In this document: piece after piece, positions 449 through 7,375 of the stretch | Layout: the number at the start of each line of letters is the position of its first letter | Numbering within the stretch: the stretch's first letter is position 1 | IMG/VR virus record: IMGVR_UViG_2671180254_000007 | DNA length: 8,155 nucleotides | Strand: one strand, 5' to 3' | Source of the DNA: a virus | Taxonomy: Duplodnaviria > Heunggongvirae > Uroviricota > Caudoviricetes | Translations under genes and position numbers: made by a program | Notes under the pieces: model-generated | Databases searched by the model: none | What the model saw: the letters and a program-made list of their open reading frames with translations, nothing else | What the model was told of the DNA's origin: nothing

Positions 449-784
449 ATGAAGTGGATTGTGATTGATACAGTTATCCAGCCATCATGCGGAATATCTT
501 TTTCAGTCATATGGAGTAAAATAAAATTAATAATCTGGTATCAATCGGATGCTTTCTTACCTCCTGAAAGTATATTTACACTGACTCACACAGGCATCAT
601 GCTCAATAACAAAGTGCTACCTGTAACCATTTACAACGTAGTACCATTCAATAAAACATTCTGGAATTCAATCAAAAATAGCCAGGAATGCCCTACAAAT
701 ACAGATAACGTATTGAATGAATGCTTTAATAACCGTTGCACTCTGCAAATATGTCCTTATGGACTAAAACAACAAAGTCCATAA
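449..784 (+). CDS. Hypothetical protein, AT-rich cargo (moron-like) ORF, Cys- and aromatic-rich
   Basis: A 111-codon open frame in ~30% GC DNA where stops should be frequent; AGGA 6 nt upstream of the ATG; orientation opposite to the surrounding operon. No family recognised. Confidence 0.35.
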
Positions 785-1184: not shown

Positions 1185-1538
1185 CTACCCCAGATGAGTA
1201 ATCCGAAGTTCATCCATACCACAGGTCCTGGCTATTCTGTTGTACTCCTGAACAAGAGCAAATAATTCTGAATTAGCAACCATGAACTCATCGCAAACCC
1301 TCTGTATAGCATCACTATTCAGAATAATAACGTCTCTTCCCGAAAGACGATCAGGAGTACAGAACAAAACTGTCAAACGGCTGAAGGCCTTTGCTCGTGC
1401 TGCATTGACTATATCAATACGCTGCCTAAGGATGAAACACCCCGACGCCTCATCAATATTCACTCTACCCACACCATATGAATGATAAATATTTAATGCT
1501 GAAAAAACCATTAGACCGTATAACAAACACTCAATCAA
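1185..1538 (-). CDS. Hypothetical protein (TTG start in track; first ATG at 1511)
   Basis: 117-aa ORF with ordinary composition in an AT-rich region between the two N blocks; no convincing RBS, no recognised family. Confidence 0.25.
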   Translation of the reverse strand: MIECLLYGLMVFSALNIYHSYGVGRVNIDEASGCFILRQRIDIVNAARAKAFSRLTVLFCTPDRLSGRDVIILNSDAIQRVCDEFMVANSELFALVQEYNRIARTCGMDELRITHLG

Positions 1539-1850: not shown

Positions 1851-1910
1851 ATATAGCACCCTGACTGATACTGTAGTACCTAAGGTTCCAGAAACTGTGA
1901 TGTATCCGGC

Positions 1911-1936
1911 ACAGAAAAGCCCCTCCGGAGAGGGCT
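1911..1936 (-). terminator. Putative intrinsic terminator (minus strand)
   Basis: GC-rich hairpin agcccctc-cgga-gagggct at 1918..1936, followed on the minus strand by TTTTCTGT. Confidence 0.35.
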
Positions 1937-2132
1937 GGAGAGTGGCGCTATGTGCCATTGCATGATGCCGGGTGCCTCCCGGTGAATTCAGTACCAGCAC
2001 CTGAATCCGCGATTATCCCATATACCTACTCGCTGATTGCCCCTCCGCACAGGGGGATTCACCATGCCAGTTTCTTTTAACAAACTCCCCGCAAAACAGA
2101 CAACTGTCAACCGTCTGAATTGTGAGACATTT

Positions 2133-2172: not shown

Positions 2173-2249
2173 TGGCGCGTTGTACTGGATTCGAACCAGT
2201 GACCGATTGCTTAGAAGGCAATTGCTCTGTCCGGCTGAGCTAACAACGC
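2173..2249 (-). tRNA. tRNA-Arg (anticodon UCU)
   Basis: Manual fold of the reverse complement: acceptor gcgttgt/acaacgc, D-stem gctc/gagc, anticodon loop cuUCUaa, T-arm cactg-gttcgaatc-cagtg, discriminator G, encoded CCA. Resembles E. coli argU architecture. Confidence 0.85.
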
Positions 2250-2262
2250 ATGATGCAGATAA

Positions 2263-2339
2263 TGGACCGCCATCGGGGACTTGAACCCCGCGCAGCCAGC
2301 TTCGAAGGCTGGCGCTCTTTCCTGATGAGCTAATGGCGG
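2263..2339 (-). tRNA. tRNA-Arg (anticodon UCG)
   Basis: Manual fold: acceptor ccgccat/atggcgg, anticodon stem ccagc/gctgg with loop cuUCGaa, T-arm cgggg-ttcaagt-ccccg, encoded CCA. The C1:G72 pair is unusual, so the 5' end may be off by a base. Confidence 0.75.
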
Positions 2340-2346
2340 TATGTGA

Positions 2347-2422
2347 TGGTGGCCCTTGCTGGATTTGAACCAGCGACCTGGCGATTATGAGTCGCTCGCT
2401 CTCACCACTGAGCTAAAGGGCC
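2347..2422 (-). tRNA. tRNA-Ile2 (anticodon CAU, lysidine type); Met cannot be excluded from sequence alone
   Basis: Manual fold: acceptor ggccctt/aagggcc, anticodon loop cuCAUaa, T-loop ttcaaat, encoded CCA; strongly resembles E. coli ileX as I recall it. Together with the two Arg tRNAs this matches the ileZ-argN-argO arrangement of Stx-type lambdoid phages. Confidence 0.85.
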
Positions 2423-2462: not shown

Positions 2463-3521
2463 TCATCCGTTCTGGCTGACTAAATCCTGTACTTCCCGAA
2501 CCGTCTGCTCAAAACGTTCAGTCTCCAGCTCAACGCCAATTGCACGACGCCCGAGCGCCAGTGCCGCTTTCACTGTCGAACCCAACCCCATGAAAAAATC
2601 TGCAATCAGGTCACCCGGACGACTGCTAGCGCTGATTATCTGCTGCAGCATTTCTGCCGGTTTTTCGCACGGATGTTTCCCGGGATAGAACTGCACCGGT
2701 TTATGCGTCCACACATCGGTATACGGCACCTGCACCGTCACGCCAAAATACCGCCGCAGATGTTTATATTCACTCAGCAGCTCCGCATACTGCCGGTTCA
2801 GTGAGGTATACGTATCCACCAGCTGGTGGTGGAGCTTTTCCAGTTCACCACGCCGATGCTTCTCTTCTGCCACCCGGGCAAACAGCGCCTGTAATTTCAG
2901 ATAATCGCTTTCATTCGGCAACTGCCACTGACCGGCACTGAACCAGTGCGACACCATGTTTTTCTTTCCTGTGGCATCTGCAATCTGTTTTGCCGTTATC
3001 CCCAGGGCAGCTCGCGCATCACGAAAGTAAGAAATCAGCGGGGCCATCACATGCTGTTTCAGTGCACTGCCCTTCGCCGCATACCCGGCATCTTTCGGAC
3101 GATACGGCCCCTGATAATGTTCCGCGAACAGAATGCGCTCTGTGGCGGGGAAATACGCCCGCAGGCTTTCCTTGTTGCATCCGTTCCAGCGTCCGGACGG
3201 CTTCGCCCAGATAATATGGTTCAGCACACTGAAGCGTTCACGCATCATGATTTCGATATCAGATGCCAGGCGATGACCACAGAACAGGTAAAGACTTCCG
3301 GCAGGTTTCAGCACCCGCCAGAACTGCGCCAGACACTGGTCCAGCCACTTCAGGTAATCATCGTCGCCCTTCCACTGGTTATCCCAGCCCTCAGGCTTCA
3401 CTTTAAAGTACGGCGGGTCCGTGACTATCAGGTCAACAGAATTTTCGGGTAACGACCGGATAAATTCCAGGCAGTCGGCGTTGATTAACTCACAACTGGA
3501 TATTTTTACAGTATTAAGCAT
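2463..3521 (-). CDS. Orphan DNA methyltransferase, beta-class (N6-adenine likely; PF01555-like)
   Basis: 352-aa ORF with DPPY catalytic motif near the N-terminus (VTDPPYF) and the AdoMet motif FxGxG near the C-terminus (DFFMGLGST); this motif order is beta-class. A central ~90-aa insert could be the target-recognition domain. No restriction endonuclease ORF is adjacent. Confidence 0.9.
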   Translation of the reverse strand: MLNTVKISSCELINADCLEFIRSLPENSVDLIVTDPPYFKVKPEGWDNQWKGDDDYLKWLDQCLAQFWRVLKPAGSLYLFCGHRLASDIEIMMRERFSVLNHIIWAKPSGRWNGCNKESLRAYFPATERILFAEHYQGPYRPKDAGYAAKGSALKQHVMAPLISYFRDARAALGITAKQIADATGKKNMVSHWFSAGQWQLPNESDYLKLQALFARVAEEKHRRGELEKLHHQLVDTYTSLNRQYAELLSEYKHLRRYFGVTVQVPYTDVWTHKPVQFYPGKHPCEKPAEMLQQIISASSRPGDLIADFFMGLGSTVKAALALGRRAIGVELETERFEQTVREVQDLVSQNG

Positions 3522-3553
3522 GGATCATTAAGCCTGTCTCTGATAGGCTCATT

Positions 3554-3572
3554 CTGCTTTTGCGCAAAGCAG
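3554..3572. promoter_or_regulatory. Near-perfect palindrome ctgcttttgcgcaaagcag upstream of the methyltransferase start
   Basis: Seen in sequence, ~35-50 bp upstream of the ATG at 3521; operator-like dyad symmetry. Confidence 0.3.
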
Positions 3573-3613
3573 TGGGCCTGAGGTTTGCTTGTGAACCCAA
3601 CGCATGAGCAGAT

Positions 3614-3644
3614 GGCTGGTGGGTGCCCCTAACACCCACCAGCC
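3614..3644. promoter_or_regulatory. Perfect 12-bp inverted repeat (ggctggtgggtg / cacccaccagcc) with 7-nt spacer
   Basis: Seen in sequence; no flanking T-tract on either strand, so not a typical intrinsic terminator; candidate protein-binding site or RNA structure in the methyltransferase leader. Confidence 0.35.
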
Positions 3645-3655
3645 GCCCATTTACC

Positions 3656-3685
3656 ACAAATAAAAAAGCCTTCACTGCGGAAGGC
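3656..3685 (-). terminator. Intrinsic terminator overlapping the stop codon of ORF 3672..3869
   Basis: Minus strand: gccttc-cgcagt-gaaggc followed by TTTTTTATTT. Confidence 0.6.
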
Positions 3686-3869
3686 GTCTGTAACAACCGA
3701 ACTGATAGTCTGCCAGACCCGCCATAACCAGCTGGGTCAGTATTAACTGGCAGCGTTCGCGTGAAAGGTAAGTATTCTGCGCTATCTCCCCGACTGTCGC
3801 CGGTTCGGTAACGCTTAATTCATTAAACACCACTCTGGCGGTTTCTGTCATATCCTGCTGTTTTAGCAT
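3672..3869 (-). CDS. Small (65 aa) hypothetical protein, possible helix-turn-helix DNA-binding protein
   Basis: ATG at 3869 with AGGA 6 nt upstream; the segment TVGEIAQNTYLSRERCQLILTQL looks like an HTH recognition region (inference only). Confidence 0.5.
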   Translation of the reverse strand: MLKQQDMTETARVVFNELSVTEPATVGEIAQNTYLSRERCQLILTQLVMAGLADYQFGCYRRLPQ

Positions 3870-3987
3870 GTCTTTTCCTTTTCCGGTTAACGTGACACAC
3901 CAATAACTCTTGTCGAAAAAGCCAGCAAGCTGAAAGACAGGTATTCACCGCCACCAGCGCGTTTACTGTACTGACGCGATTTCAGTC

Positions 3988-4011
3988 ATAAAAAACCCGC
4001 TCGGCGGCGGG
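3988..4011 (-). terminator. tR'-like intrinsic terminator downstream of Q
   Basis: Minus strand: cccgc-cgccga-gcggg followed by TTTTTTAT. Confidence 0.55.
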
Positions 4012-4060
4012 TTGTAGAAACTCTTCTAACGTCAGGCATAAAACGCCCATCGTTATGACG

Positions 4061-4088
4061 AATTTACCACAGATTCCGGAAAAATCAA
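4061..4088 (-). promoter_or_regulatory. pR'-like late promoter (candidate Q engagement/qut region)
   Basis: Minus strand TTGATT (4088..4083), 16-nt spacer, TAAATT (4066..4061), immediately downstream of the Q stop and ~55 nt upstream of the tR'-like terminator; position matches lambda pR'/tR' logic. Confidence 0.4.
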
Positions 4089-4093
4089 CCTTG

Positions 4094-4915
4094 TTACCTA
4101 GTTACCTTTTTTAACTGCCGCTCAGCCCATGCTTCTTCAATATCAAACCGGGTCACCAGCGCATCATAAAATTTCTTAACTGTTTTTTCCCATGACGCGC
4201 GTGTTATCTGGTTTGTCACCTCGCATATAGCATTAAATGCCTCCGTTGATGGTAGTCTTTCATAGCCACGACCACCACAACGCTGGCAGTCTCTGATAAC
4301 AGGCATACCACGTTTTACCGACTCTTCACGATGAATGGCGACACCACGCCCACGGCAATCCTTACAGGCGGTGGAAACCTCACCCTTTCCGCCACACTCC
4401 GGACAGGCAACTTTTACCACCTCCCTGACTTTTTTCCATTCTTCCCAGTAAGACGGATACACACCTTTCGTACACTTTGCCCATACCGGCGGCTTACCAT
4501 CCGGATACTGGATCTTGTTTGTAAAAACCTCGCTTTCAATAAATTTTTTTCCGTGACAGCAGGGGCACTGTTTTTTGCTCGCCGCGCTACGGGCATAATC
4601 TTCAAACGCATACGAAGCCATAATACGCATCACTGCCGGTTTTATTTCTGCCGGGAGTTTTCTTAACGCCGCCACGCGATCACACCGACTGAGTGCATAT
4701 TCTGTCAGCAATTCTGTTGCCCGCTCTCTGTCATTCATACTAATGCCCATTTTCCCAAGGAACGCAGAAACCCCCATCTCAGCCCGATTCTGTGTCATGC
4801 CCTGCGCGGCCATCACATCAGTGATACTCAGCGCATCTTTCGACGTTGAGGCCGATGCATCAGTCAGGCCGGGGGATTTTGGGGAGTAGTATTTCGGTAA
4901 ATCTTCCAGTTTCAT
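4094..4915 (-). CDS. Late-gene antitermination protein Q (lambda Q family, with insertion)
   Basis: 273-aa protein aligns by eye with lambda Q: N-terminal M(K/R)LE..PK(Y/F)(Y/H)SPKSP, TDVMAA.GM, DY.RSAA, CxxC zinc motifs, C-terminal TVK..YDALV...VTR. Start ATG overlaps the rusA stop (ATGA). Confidence 0.9.
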   Translation of the reverse strand: MKLEDLPKYYSPKSPGLTDASASTSKDALSITDVMAAQGMTQNRAEMGVSAFLGKMGISMNDRERATELLTEYALSRCDRVAALRKLPAEIKPAVMRIMASYAFEDYARSAASKKQCPCCHGKKFIESEVFTNKIQYPDGKPPVWAKCTKGVYPSYWEEWKKVREVVKVACPECGGKGEVSTACKDCRGRGVAIHREESVKRGMPVIRDCQRCGGRGYERLPSTEAFNAICEVTNQITRASWEKTVKKFYDALVTRFDIEEAWAERQLKKVTR

Positions 4916-5292
4916 TTTTTGACCTGCCCTTCAAGCATTATGGGATAAATCTTCACCCCCAGACGTCCACCAGATACTGGCTGAGCACGAACGATATTGA
5001 TTTCATCAAACTGCTCATCGTCCATTAGCAACCCCGCATGCGTCAGCGCATCCAGCGGCGCTTTCAGAATATTGTCCAGGTCACGGCGGCGCTTATCCGG
5101 TGGTTCTGCAATAATTTTTATTGCCAACCTTCCGGACAGGCTTAATTTCAGCCGCTGCTGGCGAACAATAAGCGCCACTGCCCGGCGATAACGCTCCCCG
5201 GCTTTTGATACAAAATATGTGCTGCCACGACGACGCCAGTAAGTGTTCACCGTCGGCGGGTAAGGTAAAACAAATTCTATGCGCTCGGTCAT
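4912..5292 (-). CDS. rusA: Holliday-junction resolvase RusA
   Basis: 126-aa protein matches E. coli RusA as I recall it (LPxPPxxN, PDxRRRDLDN, DALTxAG, GGRL). Confidence 0.92.
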   Translation of the reverse strand: MTERIEFVLPYPPTVNTYWRRRGSTYFVSKAGERYRRAVALIVRQQRLKLSLSGRLAIKIIAEPPDKRRRDLDNILKAPLDALTHAGLLMDDEQFDEINIVRAQPVSGGRLGVKIYPIMLEGQVKK

Positions 5293-6351
5293 TTATGCTT
5301 TCCACTTCAGAACACCCGAATTTCTCGCGTGCATTAAAAAACGAATCAGCAACAACAGCTGACTGCCGTGTTTCTCTTCAAAATCTTTTACTCCGGCATG
5401 TAGTTCGTTACGGCATTTACGGCATAACGGAATAACAAACAAATCATCAGCCTTTGTTCCCATCCCTCCCAGTCCATGACCAATGATGTGATGCGGATCA
5501 TCTGCCTGATTGCCACACGTCATGCATTTCTGCGTTTTTACCCAGCGCGTGTATACAGGCATCTCTTCCCGTTGTGATTTCTGGCGCTGGAGATACTGAG
5601 CCGGTGACTCCGGATCAACGGCAATGCTGACCACCGTCTTTTCCTGTGGTGGGTTCTGTTGCTGGTGGACGTGAGGCAGTAACGCAATATTTTTTGTGCG
5701 CTGCTTCAGTATGCTGGTGGCTGTCTGCTCTCCCGGTATGATGTCGCTTTCACTGTACACAGAGCGAATTTTTTCCGCACGCAACCCCAGCGAACGACGT
5801 AATACCGCTTCCGGTAGCGCGTCCGCCACCTGATTGCGGACCGCCCACCAGGATAATTCAGCCAGAGATAATTCACGCTCCTGCGTACCGCTTATTGCGT
5901 GACCGATGACGTCAATCATCCATGCTGACAGGTTTTGATGAGCAAGTTGCTCGAGTGATTCGGATGTCTGGTCACGCAGCTGGTTGTCGCAGTGCCAGCA
6001 CAACACCATTGCGCCGGTACCATAACGGTGAATGACGGTTTCGCTGTGATGATAATCGCCGTGTGGCCACTGGCAGGATTTAATATGGCGCAACAGCCAG
6101 TCAGACAATGCACCAGCACCACCAGCAGCACGAATCACCCGTGCGTTACTGAAAAACGGCAGCAATGTTTTGTCTTCCACCAGCGGCTGGCGAGCGGCAG
6201 GAACGACCCCGGACGGCAGATTACGCATGCTTTTTGGTTCCGGCTCCACCAGTATTCTGCCGTTATGGAATGCTGACATTGATTCACGGCCTGGCTTAAC
6301 GATAACCAGACCGAGTTCCGGTACCAGAACAGGTCGAAGTAATACCCGCAC
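5293..6351 (-). CDS. DUF968-family prophage protein (YdfU-like) with C-terminal Cys/His HNH-like motif
   Basis: 352-aa ORF; GTG start at 6351 preceded by GGAGG with a 4-nt spacer (alternative ATG at 6279); C-terminal CMTCG...HHIIGH...CRKCRNELH; lies directly upstream of rusA and Q as in Qin-type prophages. Confidence 0.8.
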   Translation of the reverse strand: MRVLLRPVLVPELGLVIVKPGRESMSAFHNGRILVEPEPKSMRNLPSGVVPAARQPLVEDKTLLPFFSNARVIRAAGGAGALSDWLLRHIKSCQWPHGDYHHSETVIHRYGTGAMVLCWHCDNQLRDQTSESLEQLAHQNLSAWMIDVIGHAISGTQERELSLAELSWWAVRNQVADALPEAVLRRSLGLRAEKIRSVYSESDIIPGEQTATSILKQRTKNIALLPHVHQQQNPPQEKTVVSIAVDPESPAQYLQRQKSQREEMPVYTRWVKTQKCMTCGNQADDPHHIIGHGLGGMGTKADDLFVIPLCRKCRNELHAGVKDFEEKHGSQLLLLIRFLMHARNSGVLKWKA

Positions 6352-6928: not shown

Positions 6929-7084
6929 TTACTCCTCAGGTTCGTAAGCTGTGAAGACAGCGACCTCCGTCTGGCCGGTTCGAATTCGTACCTCGCAGAG
7001 GTCTTTCCTCGTTACCAGTGCCGTCACTATGACGGTTAAACAGATGACGATCAGGGCGATTAACATCGCCTTTTGCTGCTTCAT
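6929..7084 (-). CDS. hokD: Hok/Gef-family type I toxin (HokD/RelF-like), 51 aa
   Basis: Internal Met of ORF 6929..7141 gives MKQQKAMLIALIVICLTVIVTALVTRKDLCEVRIRTGQTEVAVFTAYEPEE, matching E. coli HokD as I recall it; GGAG 9 nt upstream of this ATG. The track ORF adds 19 in-frame upstream codons of uncertain meaning. Confidence 0.9.
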   Translation of the reverse strand: MKQQKAMLIALIVICLTVIVTALVTRKDLCEVRIRTGQTEVAVFTAYEPEE

Positions 7085-7375
7085 AGCCTGCTTCTCCTTG
7101 CCTTTCGGCACGTAAGAGGCTAACCTAGATTTGCCGTTCATAGATTGAGCCTCAGATTAATGTTAAGCGTCTTGCCGGACGCGTAATGTTAACTGGGGCT
7201 TTTCTCTATCTGCCTTTTGGTGTTCATGCCTGAGACAGATAGCCTCAAGCACCCGCTGCAATTCTACTTAACTCTCCTTTTCCCGCAAACCGTTTTTATC
7301 CCCAGCGGCAAATCGAATACACCACCAGCGCCACCGCCATCGCAATTCCTACCGTTGTTAATGCTTCAGGCCAGG

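Follow-up and report, generated by a model that had tools for sequence, protein, structure and literature searches.

A conserved structured RNA leader, possibly a translational gate, precedes M.EcoGII-type adenine methyltransferase genes of prophages

Introduction

How does a temperate phage confine a DNA-modifying enzyme that is toxic to its own host to the lytic cycle? The question is raised by a locus in an 8,155-nucleotide (nt) stretch of Caudoviricetes DNA (IMG/VR record IMGVR_UViG_2671180254_000007), here called the window, where the gene of an M.EcoGII-type adenine methyltransferase follows a 65-residue open reading frame (ORF) and a spacer that contains two palindromes. A sequence-only reading of positions 2463-3869 had compared this layout with the controller (C) proteins and C-box operators of restriction-modification (R-M) systems. 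Our analysis places both palindromes in a structured RNA leader of the methyltransferase gene; they led to this conserved element, though the C-box analogy was wrong. To our knowledge, the gating of M.EcoGII's own expression has been examined by nobody, and a concrete, testable mechanism for it is suggested by a conserved leader with covariation support in which the start region is part of a helix.

Results and discussion

The palindromes are helices of a structured RNA leader

The cassette and the elements of its leader are arranged as follows.

3672-3869, minus strand: gene of a 65-residue winged-helix protein (phrog_331; source labels 'TrmB family' and 'DprA-like wH')
3519-3664, minus strand: structured RNA leader of the methyltransferase gene, ~145 nt, described by covariance model R1 and ending with the AUG
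3604-3650, minus strand: helix P1ext, AUGGGC (3650-3645) paired with GCUCAU (3609-3604), enclosing P1
3614-3644, minus strand: hairpin P1, the first palindrome, a perfect inverted repeat of 12 base pairs (bp; 3614-3625 and 3633-3644)
3588-3597, minus strand: 5' strand of helix P2, GGUUCACAAG, pairing with 3522-3532
3573-3578, minus strand: invariant GGCCCA, of which GGC forms helix P2b with GCC (3546-3548) and GCCCA is complementary to UGGGC (3645-3649)
3554-3572, minus strand: hairpin P3, the second palindrome, CTGCTTTGCGCAAAAGCAG, supported by sequence reading and covariation
3522-3532, minus strand: 3' strand of P2, CUUAAUGAUCC, covering -11 to -1 of the methyltransferase AUG
2463-3521, minus strand: M.EcoGII-type beta-class N6-adenine DNA methyltransferase, 352 residues (PF01555)

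Both dyads lie where the sequence-only reading had placed them, exceed chance by fold z-score and by covariation, and are conserved in the homologues with compensatory changes. RNAfold gives the leader -63.7 kcal/mol (z = -4.06 against shuffled sequences), and RNAalifold, single-sequence RNAfold and manual inspection agree on P1ext, P1, P2, P2b and P3. Double-sided changes were found in 11 of the 12 pairs of P1 (74 sequences), in all 9 pairs of P2, a helix of ~70-nt range that abuts the AUG, and in all 5 modelled pairs of P3, where 90% of alignment cells are paired. P1ext is paired in 97-99% of cells, with A-U replaced by G-C in three sequences and the other changes wobble-compatible, and in P2b G-C gives way to A-U in 8-11 sequences. 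Across the spacer alignment, invariant blocks alternate with segments that change in compensatory fashion, and the junction nucleotides AAAUGGGC, AAGGCCCA and GAGCCUA are invariant across genera while the helices vary. No Shine-Dalgarno sequence was found at a usable distance from the methyltransferase AUG, the nearest AGG of the window ending at -12.

The invariant UGGGC and GCCCA segments, which may form a pseudoknot or an alternative pairing, are complementary in all 74 sequences, with one compensatory event (G-to-A and C-to-U, in the Mixta locus L034). Since this pairing excludes P1ext and P2b, it could represent a second conformer of the leader.

Three other candidates in this interval were rejected. 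A local hairpin, GCUCAUG:CACAAGC (columns 82-88 and 100-106 of alignment A2), forms mainly in the Proteus group, with 71% of cells paired. A second conformer in which the freed GCUCAU pairs with (A/G)UGAGC is not conserved in N15-type or Proteus-type leaders. A 60-residue ORF across the leader (3514-3696, minus strand) is spurious, having no family match and a frame that is broken by single-nucleotide indels in homologues.

Covariation and distribution of the leader

In the MAFFT alignment A2, 83.7% of the cells assigned to helices pair, against 29-51% in slid controls. Across 74 diverse phage and prophage loci, extending from Escherichia to Proteus and including N15/phiKO2 and the Vibrio phage VHML (alignment A6), 91.8% of cells pair (28-41% in slid controls); this percentage is inflated, which weighs against taking it at face value, because A6 was fitted to the R1 model, and the independent A2 is weaker but concordant and the more conservative of the two. 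Double-sided changes occur at 29 of the 35 pairs in the 74 loci, and covariation scores 0.468, compared with at most 0.096 in the controls. The helices contain 173 G-U against 91 A-C pairs, an excess that fits an RNA on the sense strand.

R1 matches the leader of the window with 135.5 bits (E 4e-29). It finds exactly one match per locus, always on the methyltransferase strand and ending at the start codon of the next ORF. Matches were obtained in 57 of 85 loci related to VHML ORF17 and in 57 of 72 related to phiKO2 gp52, the matched sets including N15, phiKO2 and VHML themselves. When IMG/VR was scanned with an RNA-only pattern made of three invariant RNA blocks, at least 120 stretches matched; a methyltransferase gene lies 3' of the leader in all 80 loci checked among the matches listed, directly in 78 and after an interval of ~150 nt in 2. 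Comparative sequence evidence establishes that the RNA fold exists, how far it extends and that it is conserved and, in the sampled data, that it is tied exclusively to this methyltransferase family.

The scan of Rfam 15 (4227 families) gave no match at gathering score in the window or in seven related loci, among them N15, phiKO2, VHML, Vibrio-type and Proteus-type sequences; the best sub-threshold hit was P26 (E 0.011), and the window was also scanned at E up to 10. Literature searches on EcoGII and antitermination, on the leader of N15 gene 52 and on RNA motifs of N6_N4_Mtase genes returned nothing relevant. The leader is a structured RNA absent from Rfam and from the literature searched.

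The methyltransferase is a close relative of M.EcoGII

The enzyme matches PF01555 (N6_N4_Mtase) with E 7.9e-42 and 144 bits (cut-off 26.7). Its DPPY motif (motif IV, residues 35-38) precedes FMGLG (the FxGxG of motif I, residues 310-314) with the target recognition domain between them, which is the beta-class order, and both motifs noted by the sequence-only reading were located in the translation. Identity to M.EcoGII extends to 324 of 349 residues (93%), measured against the sequence in the supplement of the SUPREM paper (PMC11551740), a machine-read text with a few optical character recognition errors. At the DNA level the locus is 94.8% identical to phage 1720a-02, named by Murray et al. 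as the source of a very similar enzyme in the retrieved passages of their paper (PMC5778455). The enzyme itself is, by its sequence, an already known one, a relative of M.EcoGII.

According to the same passages, M.EcoGII methylates adenine in any context and also acts on single-stranded DNA and RNA; it is silent in the lysogen, its constitutive expression is deleterious, and the authors propose that it is turned on as the prophage excises, late genes being off until induction (PMC5778455). Neither these passages nor those retrieved from the SUPREM paper mention the winged-helix gene or the RNA leader. Pfam and PADLOC scans found no endonuclease or other defence protein among the other ORFs of the window, so the methyltransferase is an orphan there, as had been claimed. 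The anti-restriction role suggested for it fits the properties published for M.EcoGII, as far as the retrieved passages give them (PMC5778455); late anti-restriction hypermethylation is the likely biological role.

Within the coding sequence, ACUGU in codons 4-5 (Thr ACU, Val GUA/GUG; codons 2-6 lie at 3504-3518, minus strand) is invariant in 36 of 36 homologues, which stands out because synonymous sites elsewhere are saturated. A similar stretch, CUGUG(A)AAA, lies just 5' of the leader core. The invariance of ACUGU may reflect an RNA-level constraint that reaches into the methyltransferase ORF.

The small gene encodes a winged helix and is a frequent but dispensable companion

The 65-residue protein matches phrog_331 (E 1e-37) and has 334 homologues across Enterobacterales. 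Its gene has a good AAGGA Shine-Dalgarno sequence and evolves under constraint-like ratios, the proportion of synonymous differences (pS) being 0.6-0.9 (saturated) and that of non-synonymous differences (pN) 0.07-0.37; between the window and Kluyvera the values are 0.86 and 0.09. The AlphaFold model is a winged helix, three helices (H1-H2-H3) and a beta hairpin, with a predicted local distance difference test score (pLDDT) of 91. Its best matches in the PDB are the winged-helix domains of IclR, MarR and SelB (template-modelling score, TM-score, 0.7-0.84) and winged-helix dimerisation domains of O-methyltransferases. In Pfam, TrmB was the sole match, at 18 bits and under its cut-off of 25.6. 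The ORF is a real gene that, on its structural model, codes for a winged helix. The helix-turn-helix-like ORF of the sequence-only reading stands as a conserved gene of that general class; its fold is a winged helix and not Xre/HTH_3. The profile searches, with PF01555 for the one protein and phrog_331 plus sub-threshold TrmB for the other, bear out the class of the enzyme and give no C protein.

A search for the small protein with one genome per species returned 34 loci, 33 of them evaluable. In 32 of the 33, the methyltransferase gene follows immediately 3', at ~150 nt, so that the co-occurrence in other prophages that the sequence-only reading had proposed to examine is borne out. The intergenic length is 142-153 nt in 30 of these 32. 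L026 is shorter (134 nt) and L030 longer (285 nt), the small ORF of L030 being truncated by an early stop. This spacing extends from Escherichia to Proteus, Providencia and Plesiomonas, and it holds steady while the encoded proteins fall to 41-60% identity. Records of annotated phages contain the methyltransferase in 96 cases and a detectable small protein in 57. In every record that gives coordinates for both genes, the start of the small gene precedes that of the methyltransferase gene by ~330-355 nt, as in Stx2c phages, mEp460, SfV (orf47/orf48) and a Providencia phage. Two loci labelled as Bacillus sp. MAG (L004) and Chryseobacterium sp. (L014) carry the cassette with 79-98% winged-helix protein identity to the window; these labels probably reflect contamination or mis-binning.

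Other lineages have a different small gene instead. Com-like Cys4 zinc-ribbon ORFs of ~40 residues (L126-L134, L140, L168, L270; e.g., MTKKLIELRCYKCGAKLCEFIGTVSIKCKRCKTLVKESAKSA) begin with the AUG of the leader and stop shortly before an M.EcoGII-family methyltransferase gene, a com-mom-like arrangement. Their matches to PF10122 (E 2e-4 to about 1e-3) are below the gathering score. A Com zinc-ribbon ORF immediately 5' of the methyltransferase was seen in such related loci only, with none in the window.

The cassette lies at the start of a lambdoid late region

The genes of interest are all on the minus strand of the window, in the order that marks the start of a lambdoid late region.

5293-6351, minus strand: DUF968, lambdoid late-region start, 5' of RusA
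4912-5292, minus strand: RusA, between DUF968 and Q
4094-4915, minus strand: Q antiterminator gene, 273 residues (PF03589, E 1.6e-53; annotated quuQ in the Stx2 phage homologue L001)
4061-4088, minus strand: candidate late promoter PR' (TTGATT, 16 nt, TGgTAAATT), proposed from sequence by eye
3987-4013, minus strand: tR'-like intrinsic terminator (also placed at 3994-4013), stem AACCCGC/GCGGGTT followed by a U-run
3668-3685, minus strand: second intrinsic terminator, 6-bp GC-rich stem followed by U6, overlapping the stop codon of the 65-residue ORF
2173-2422, minus strand: tRNA-Met(cat), tRNA-Arg(tcg) and tRNA-Arg(tct) (ARAGORN and Rfam), 3' of the methyltransferase gene in the same late transcript

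The candidate PR' lies directly 3' of the Q stop codon and agrees with the consensus at 8 of 12 positions, for which reason the consensus scan did not flag it; the same scan found no promoter-like site between the winged-helix gene and the methyltransferase gene. The spacer between the second terminator and the methyltransferase gene is 150 nt long. The annotations of Stx2 (Shiga toxin 2) phages and of phiP27 show this gene order too, stx2AB following the tRNAs, and the order also occurs in non-Stx E. coli prophages. The late-transcript context recognised earlier, with the Q gene, a PR'-like site and terminators all 5' of the methyltransferase gene and ordered as in Stx2 phages, is thereby upheld, and the small ORF does have a terminator of its own. 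The module would be the first cassette of a Q-dependent late operon of a lambdoid prophage, a placement with which Q, the terminators and the gene order fit and for which PR' was read by eye.

Several details of this region are recorded here. A predicted short PR'-tR' transcript of ~70 nt (3987-4054, minus strand) would be the counterpart of lambda 6S RNA or StxS; it has only a weak isrK-like Rfam match (E 0.58) and contains AUGGGCG, the heptamer also found in the methyltransferase leader core. The known prophage small RNAs (sRNAs) AgvB and AsxR were rejected as identities, as both have Rfam families and neither matches the window, and so was StxS, whose Q/PR' type is a different one. At 3668-3685, the winged-helix gene has its stop codon inside the loop or 3' arm of the hairpin, which is kept through compensatory changes across Enterobacteriaceae (GCCUUC/GAAGGC, GCCUCC/GGGGGC, CUGCC/GGCAG) and is missing from the Proteus and Providencia homologues; the strong U-tract after it is confined to the Escherichia group. 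In phiP27 (L002, 5654-6883) a GIY-YIG nuclease gene is inserted between the Q-like and winged-helix genes of an otherwise intact cassette.

Further along the transcript, an STnc100 sRNA (1907-2096, minus strand; 124 bits) lies 3' of the tRNAs. N runs occupy 813-1071 and 1601-1850, between iraM (449-784, plus strand) and the tRNAs, the interval in which Stx2 phages of the same backbone (L001) carry stx2A/stx2B; the unmasked ORF there (1185-1538, minus strand) is phrog_2873, to which no function is assigned. The window also holds a hok/sok type I toxin-antitoxin pair (7079-7254 and 6929-7141, both minus strand; sok 112 bits, Hok ORF matching PF01848).

A model for the two-layered control of the methyltransferase

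With moderate confidence, we propose that the locus encodes a Q-dependent anti-restriction methyltransferase of the M.EcoGII type that is locked by two terminators and by a leader acting as a translational gate, with P1 and P3 as the dyads of the sequence-only reading. PR', tR', the winged-helix gene, the second terminator, the ~145-nt leader and the gene of a non-specific adenine methyltransferase would follow one another in this order. Late in the lytic cycle the enzyme would hypermethylate replicated phage DNA and so allow the progeny to escape restriction. Because its unregulated expression is toxic, two layers would lock the gene. The first would consist of the two intrinsic terminators, which would make transcription Q-dependent, so that only Q-modified polymerase gets to the methyltransferase gene. 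Reading of Q-modified polymerase past terminators is established lambdoid biology. The second would be the leader, in which the long-range helix P2 would gate translation by pairing positions -11 to -1 before an AUG without a usable Shine-Dalgarno sequence; the structure follows from covariation, and gating by P2 we infer from its position. The 65-residue protein would be a frequent, dispensable companion, and it may act in trans to open or close the gate, in the way that Com controls Mu mom, a role for which the analogy speaks weakly. Switching of the RNA by the winged-helix protein, Com-like proteins, the methyltransferase or a metabolite is speculative.

Some observations weigh against this model or parts of it. 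A methyltransferase homologue of phiO18P does without this leader and has an ordinary Shine-Dalgarno sequence, and in another methyltransferase clade the conserved leader is of a different kind and includes a terminator-like hairpin. The helix at the start region could instead activate initiation by joining distant elements. The net charge of the 65-residue protein, computed from its sequence, is about -1 and its third helix is hydrophobic; with such a charge, nucleic-acid binding cannot be assumed. In IMG/VR, where the protein was sought with separate A1 and A7 profiles, the winged-helix gene is detectable 5' of the leader in 67 of 110 leader-bearing loci and is absent from 43, in some of which Q is directly 5' of the leader. 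The same P1 sequence type, moreover, occurs with the protein (45 loci) and without it (14). As the leader persists in the 43 loci and with the same P1 type, the protein is not required for leader function, and since VHML and the Com-type loci also have the leader without the small gene, the element is not simply an operator of that protein. The leader is therefore part of the methyltransferase operon and does not go with the winged-helix gene. On the same counts, which are for GGUGGGUG-type P1, we rejected a link between P1 type and winged-helix protein of the kind that a recognition site would show.

The second leader (L135-L160, L256-L268, L273 in IMG/VR) lies about 150 nt 5' of the start of methyltransferase genes whose products are at about 52-56% identity. 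It runs, in order, through GAUGCCUUGAGUACCUGAGACCCA, a hairpin, UGGAGAGGAAGCA, a GC-rich terminator-like hairpin, UUCAAGGCUCU, AGGAG and the AUG. R1 does not match it, and Rfam gave no match in L257.

A bolder version of the two-lock model is possible, and we advance it tentatively: the leader might be a new class of RNA switch for hypermodifying phage methyltransferases, in which UGGGC would alternate between GCUCAU and GCCCA depending on a trans factor, with translation only in cells committed to lysis. The candidate trans factors, all speculative, are the winged-helix or Com-like protein, the methyltransferase itself (possibly through N6-methyladenine in its own leader), and a small molecule such as S-adenosylmethionine (SAM) or S-adenosylhomocysteine (SAH).

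Alternative explanations

The leader might be a riboswitch for SAM, SAH or a phage-stage metabolite, with UGGGC toggling between P1ext and the pseudoknot and thereby exposing or hiding the start. Junctions that stay invariant across genera while helices vary are in keeping with this, as are the conservation of both UGGGC partners with covariation (A-U to G-C in P1ext, G-C to A-U in the pseudoknot of L034) and the regulation of a heavy consumer of SAM. We nevertheless consider a ligand riboswitch unlikely, as no similarity to Rfam riboswitches appeared even at E up to 10, the pseudoknot depends on one compensatory event, ligand binding is putative, and it is not obvious why a phage late gene should sense a metabolite.

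An autogenous operator, at which the methyltransferase would bind or methylate its own leader and cap its own synthesis, would explain why the leader accompanies the methyltransferase whatever small gene, if any, lies 5'. The activity of M.EcoGII on RNA and single-stranded DNA, reported in the retrieved passages (PMC5778455), and the conserved unpaired A-rich junctions of the leader would suit such a loop. It is rendered improbable by the Com-type loci, in which the leader would gate the com-like ORF and not the methyltransferase ORF directly, and by the enzyme's described lack of specificity, from which a specific operator is not expected.

That the element serves RNA processing or stability, or is released from the late transcript as an sRNA acting in trans, rather than gating translation, seems very unlikely. 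Nearby prophage regions are rich in sRNAs (STnc100 and sok in the window), and StxS is processed from PR' transcripts (PMC7547250); the element, however, lacks its own terminator and in every case ends exactly at a start codon, and the AgvB and AsxR families of Rfam do not match.

The controller-protein reading, in which the 65-residue factor would bind the two palindromes as DNA operators and so autoregulate or time transcription of the methyltransferase gene, draws on a small gene of the helix-turn-helix class just 5' of the methyltransferase gene and conserved with it, and on the two dyads between them. It does not hold, failing each defining feature, and we give it scarcely any credence. 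The fold is a winged helix and not Xre/HTH_3, the dyads lie 3' of the small gene and not 5', and there is no endonuclease to time. As for operators and autoregulation, the dyads covary as RNA helices, their sequences drifting with pairing retained and with many G-U pairs (GGUGGG/CCCACC becomes GUAAAAG/CUUUUAC in Proteus); they form part of a larger fold that includes long-range helices, the leader is also found in loci that lack the small protein, and no promoter was found in the interval. Conservation might also act on the DNA itself, as a site of protein binding, packaging or recombination, and a cruciform or a bound dimer is conceivable at the perfect 12-bp palindrome. We give this a negligible probability: G-U tolerance is strand-asymmetric, long-range nested helices covary, and orientation and register to the AUG are fixed.

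Significance

Prophages of E. coli and related bacteria very commonly carry the gene of an M.EcoGII-type methyltransferase, and M.EcoGII is widely used as a reagent, e.g., for non-specific methylation of DNA and RNA substrates (PMC5778455, in the retrieved passages; PMC11551740). With its leader, the few cis-regulatory RNAs listed for phages gain a candidate family, and three unrelated small-protein solutions, a winged helix, a Com-like zinc ribbon and none, are linked to one problem, the production of a self-toxic anti-restriction enzyme only at the point of no return. In Stx phages the cassette is directly 5' of stx, so its terminators and leader would also shape the toxin transcript.

Comparison with known systems

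The closest known systems for the enzyme are the non-specific adenine methyltransferases M.EcoGII and M.EcoGI of an E. coli O104:H4 prophage (Murray et al. 2018, PMC5778455), with which it has in common the beta-class order, a prophage location and, for M.EcoGII, 93% protein identity; the same gene is present in phage 1720a-02. The window enzyme differs in length (352 against 349 residues), in ~25 substitutions and in having FMGLG for FMGSG, and its activity is a prediction.

N15/phiKO2 gp51-gp52 and VHML ORF17 belong to the same methyltransferase family (47-60% identity) and have the same leader (R1 42-54 bits). In the N15-type phages, gp51 is distantly homologous to the winged-helix protein of the window (hhalign E 3.5e-5) and, unlike in the window, its gene lies 5' of the annotated late promoter and terminator; VHML has the leader and the methyltransferase without a winged-helix gene. 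Between gp51 and the leader, N15 and phiKO2 (L118, L119; 1236-1362) carry an annotated partition-like site, late promoter and terminator. The RefSeq start of N15 gene 52 (locus position 1735) is 234 nt 3' of the conserved AUG at the leader end (locus position 1501).

With the C proteins and C-boxes of R-M systems, the locus has in common a small gene of DNA-binding type beside a methyltransferase and dyads nearby; it differs in fold class, in dyad position, in the lack of an endonuclease and in that the dyads are RNA helices. Riboswitches and the structured leaders of Rfam resemble the window leader in their covarying helices, invariant junctions, possible pseudoknot and start region held in a helix, whereas the leader matches none of the 4227 families. 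As in structured cis-regulatory leaders in general, compensatory changes go together with a fixed position 5' of an ORF, which the leader presumably regulates.

The closest functional precedent is com-mom of phage Mu together with com-like systems (Hia5, Hin1523, Nma1821; PMC3299994, PMC6483171). In Mu-like prophages, com-like genes precede the non-specific methyltransferases Hia5 and Hin1523 (PMC3299994); Hia5-type enzymes have a different motif order, as Murray et al. state in the retrieved passages (PMC5778455). By analogy, Mu and the window would share a toxic, late anti-restriction DNA-modification enzyme, and they have in common a tiny protein gene 5' of it, the window protein being a putative nucleic-acid binder, and mRNA structure at the start region. 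Sequestration of the start in the manner of Mu may have a counterpart in P2, which pairs -11 to -1 with covariation and from which we infer a translational effect. The window differs in having a winged-helix protein and not a zinc ribbon, encoded 5' of the leader without overlapping the target start, a five-helix leader of ~145 nt in place of a single stem-loop, and a beta-class methyltransferase in place of Mom. The module is best filed as a variant of a known theme, that of phage DNA-modification genes locked post-transcriptionally.

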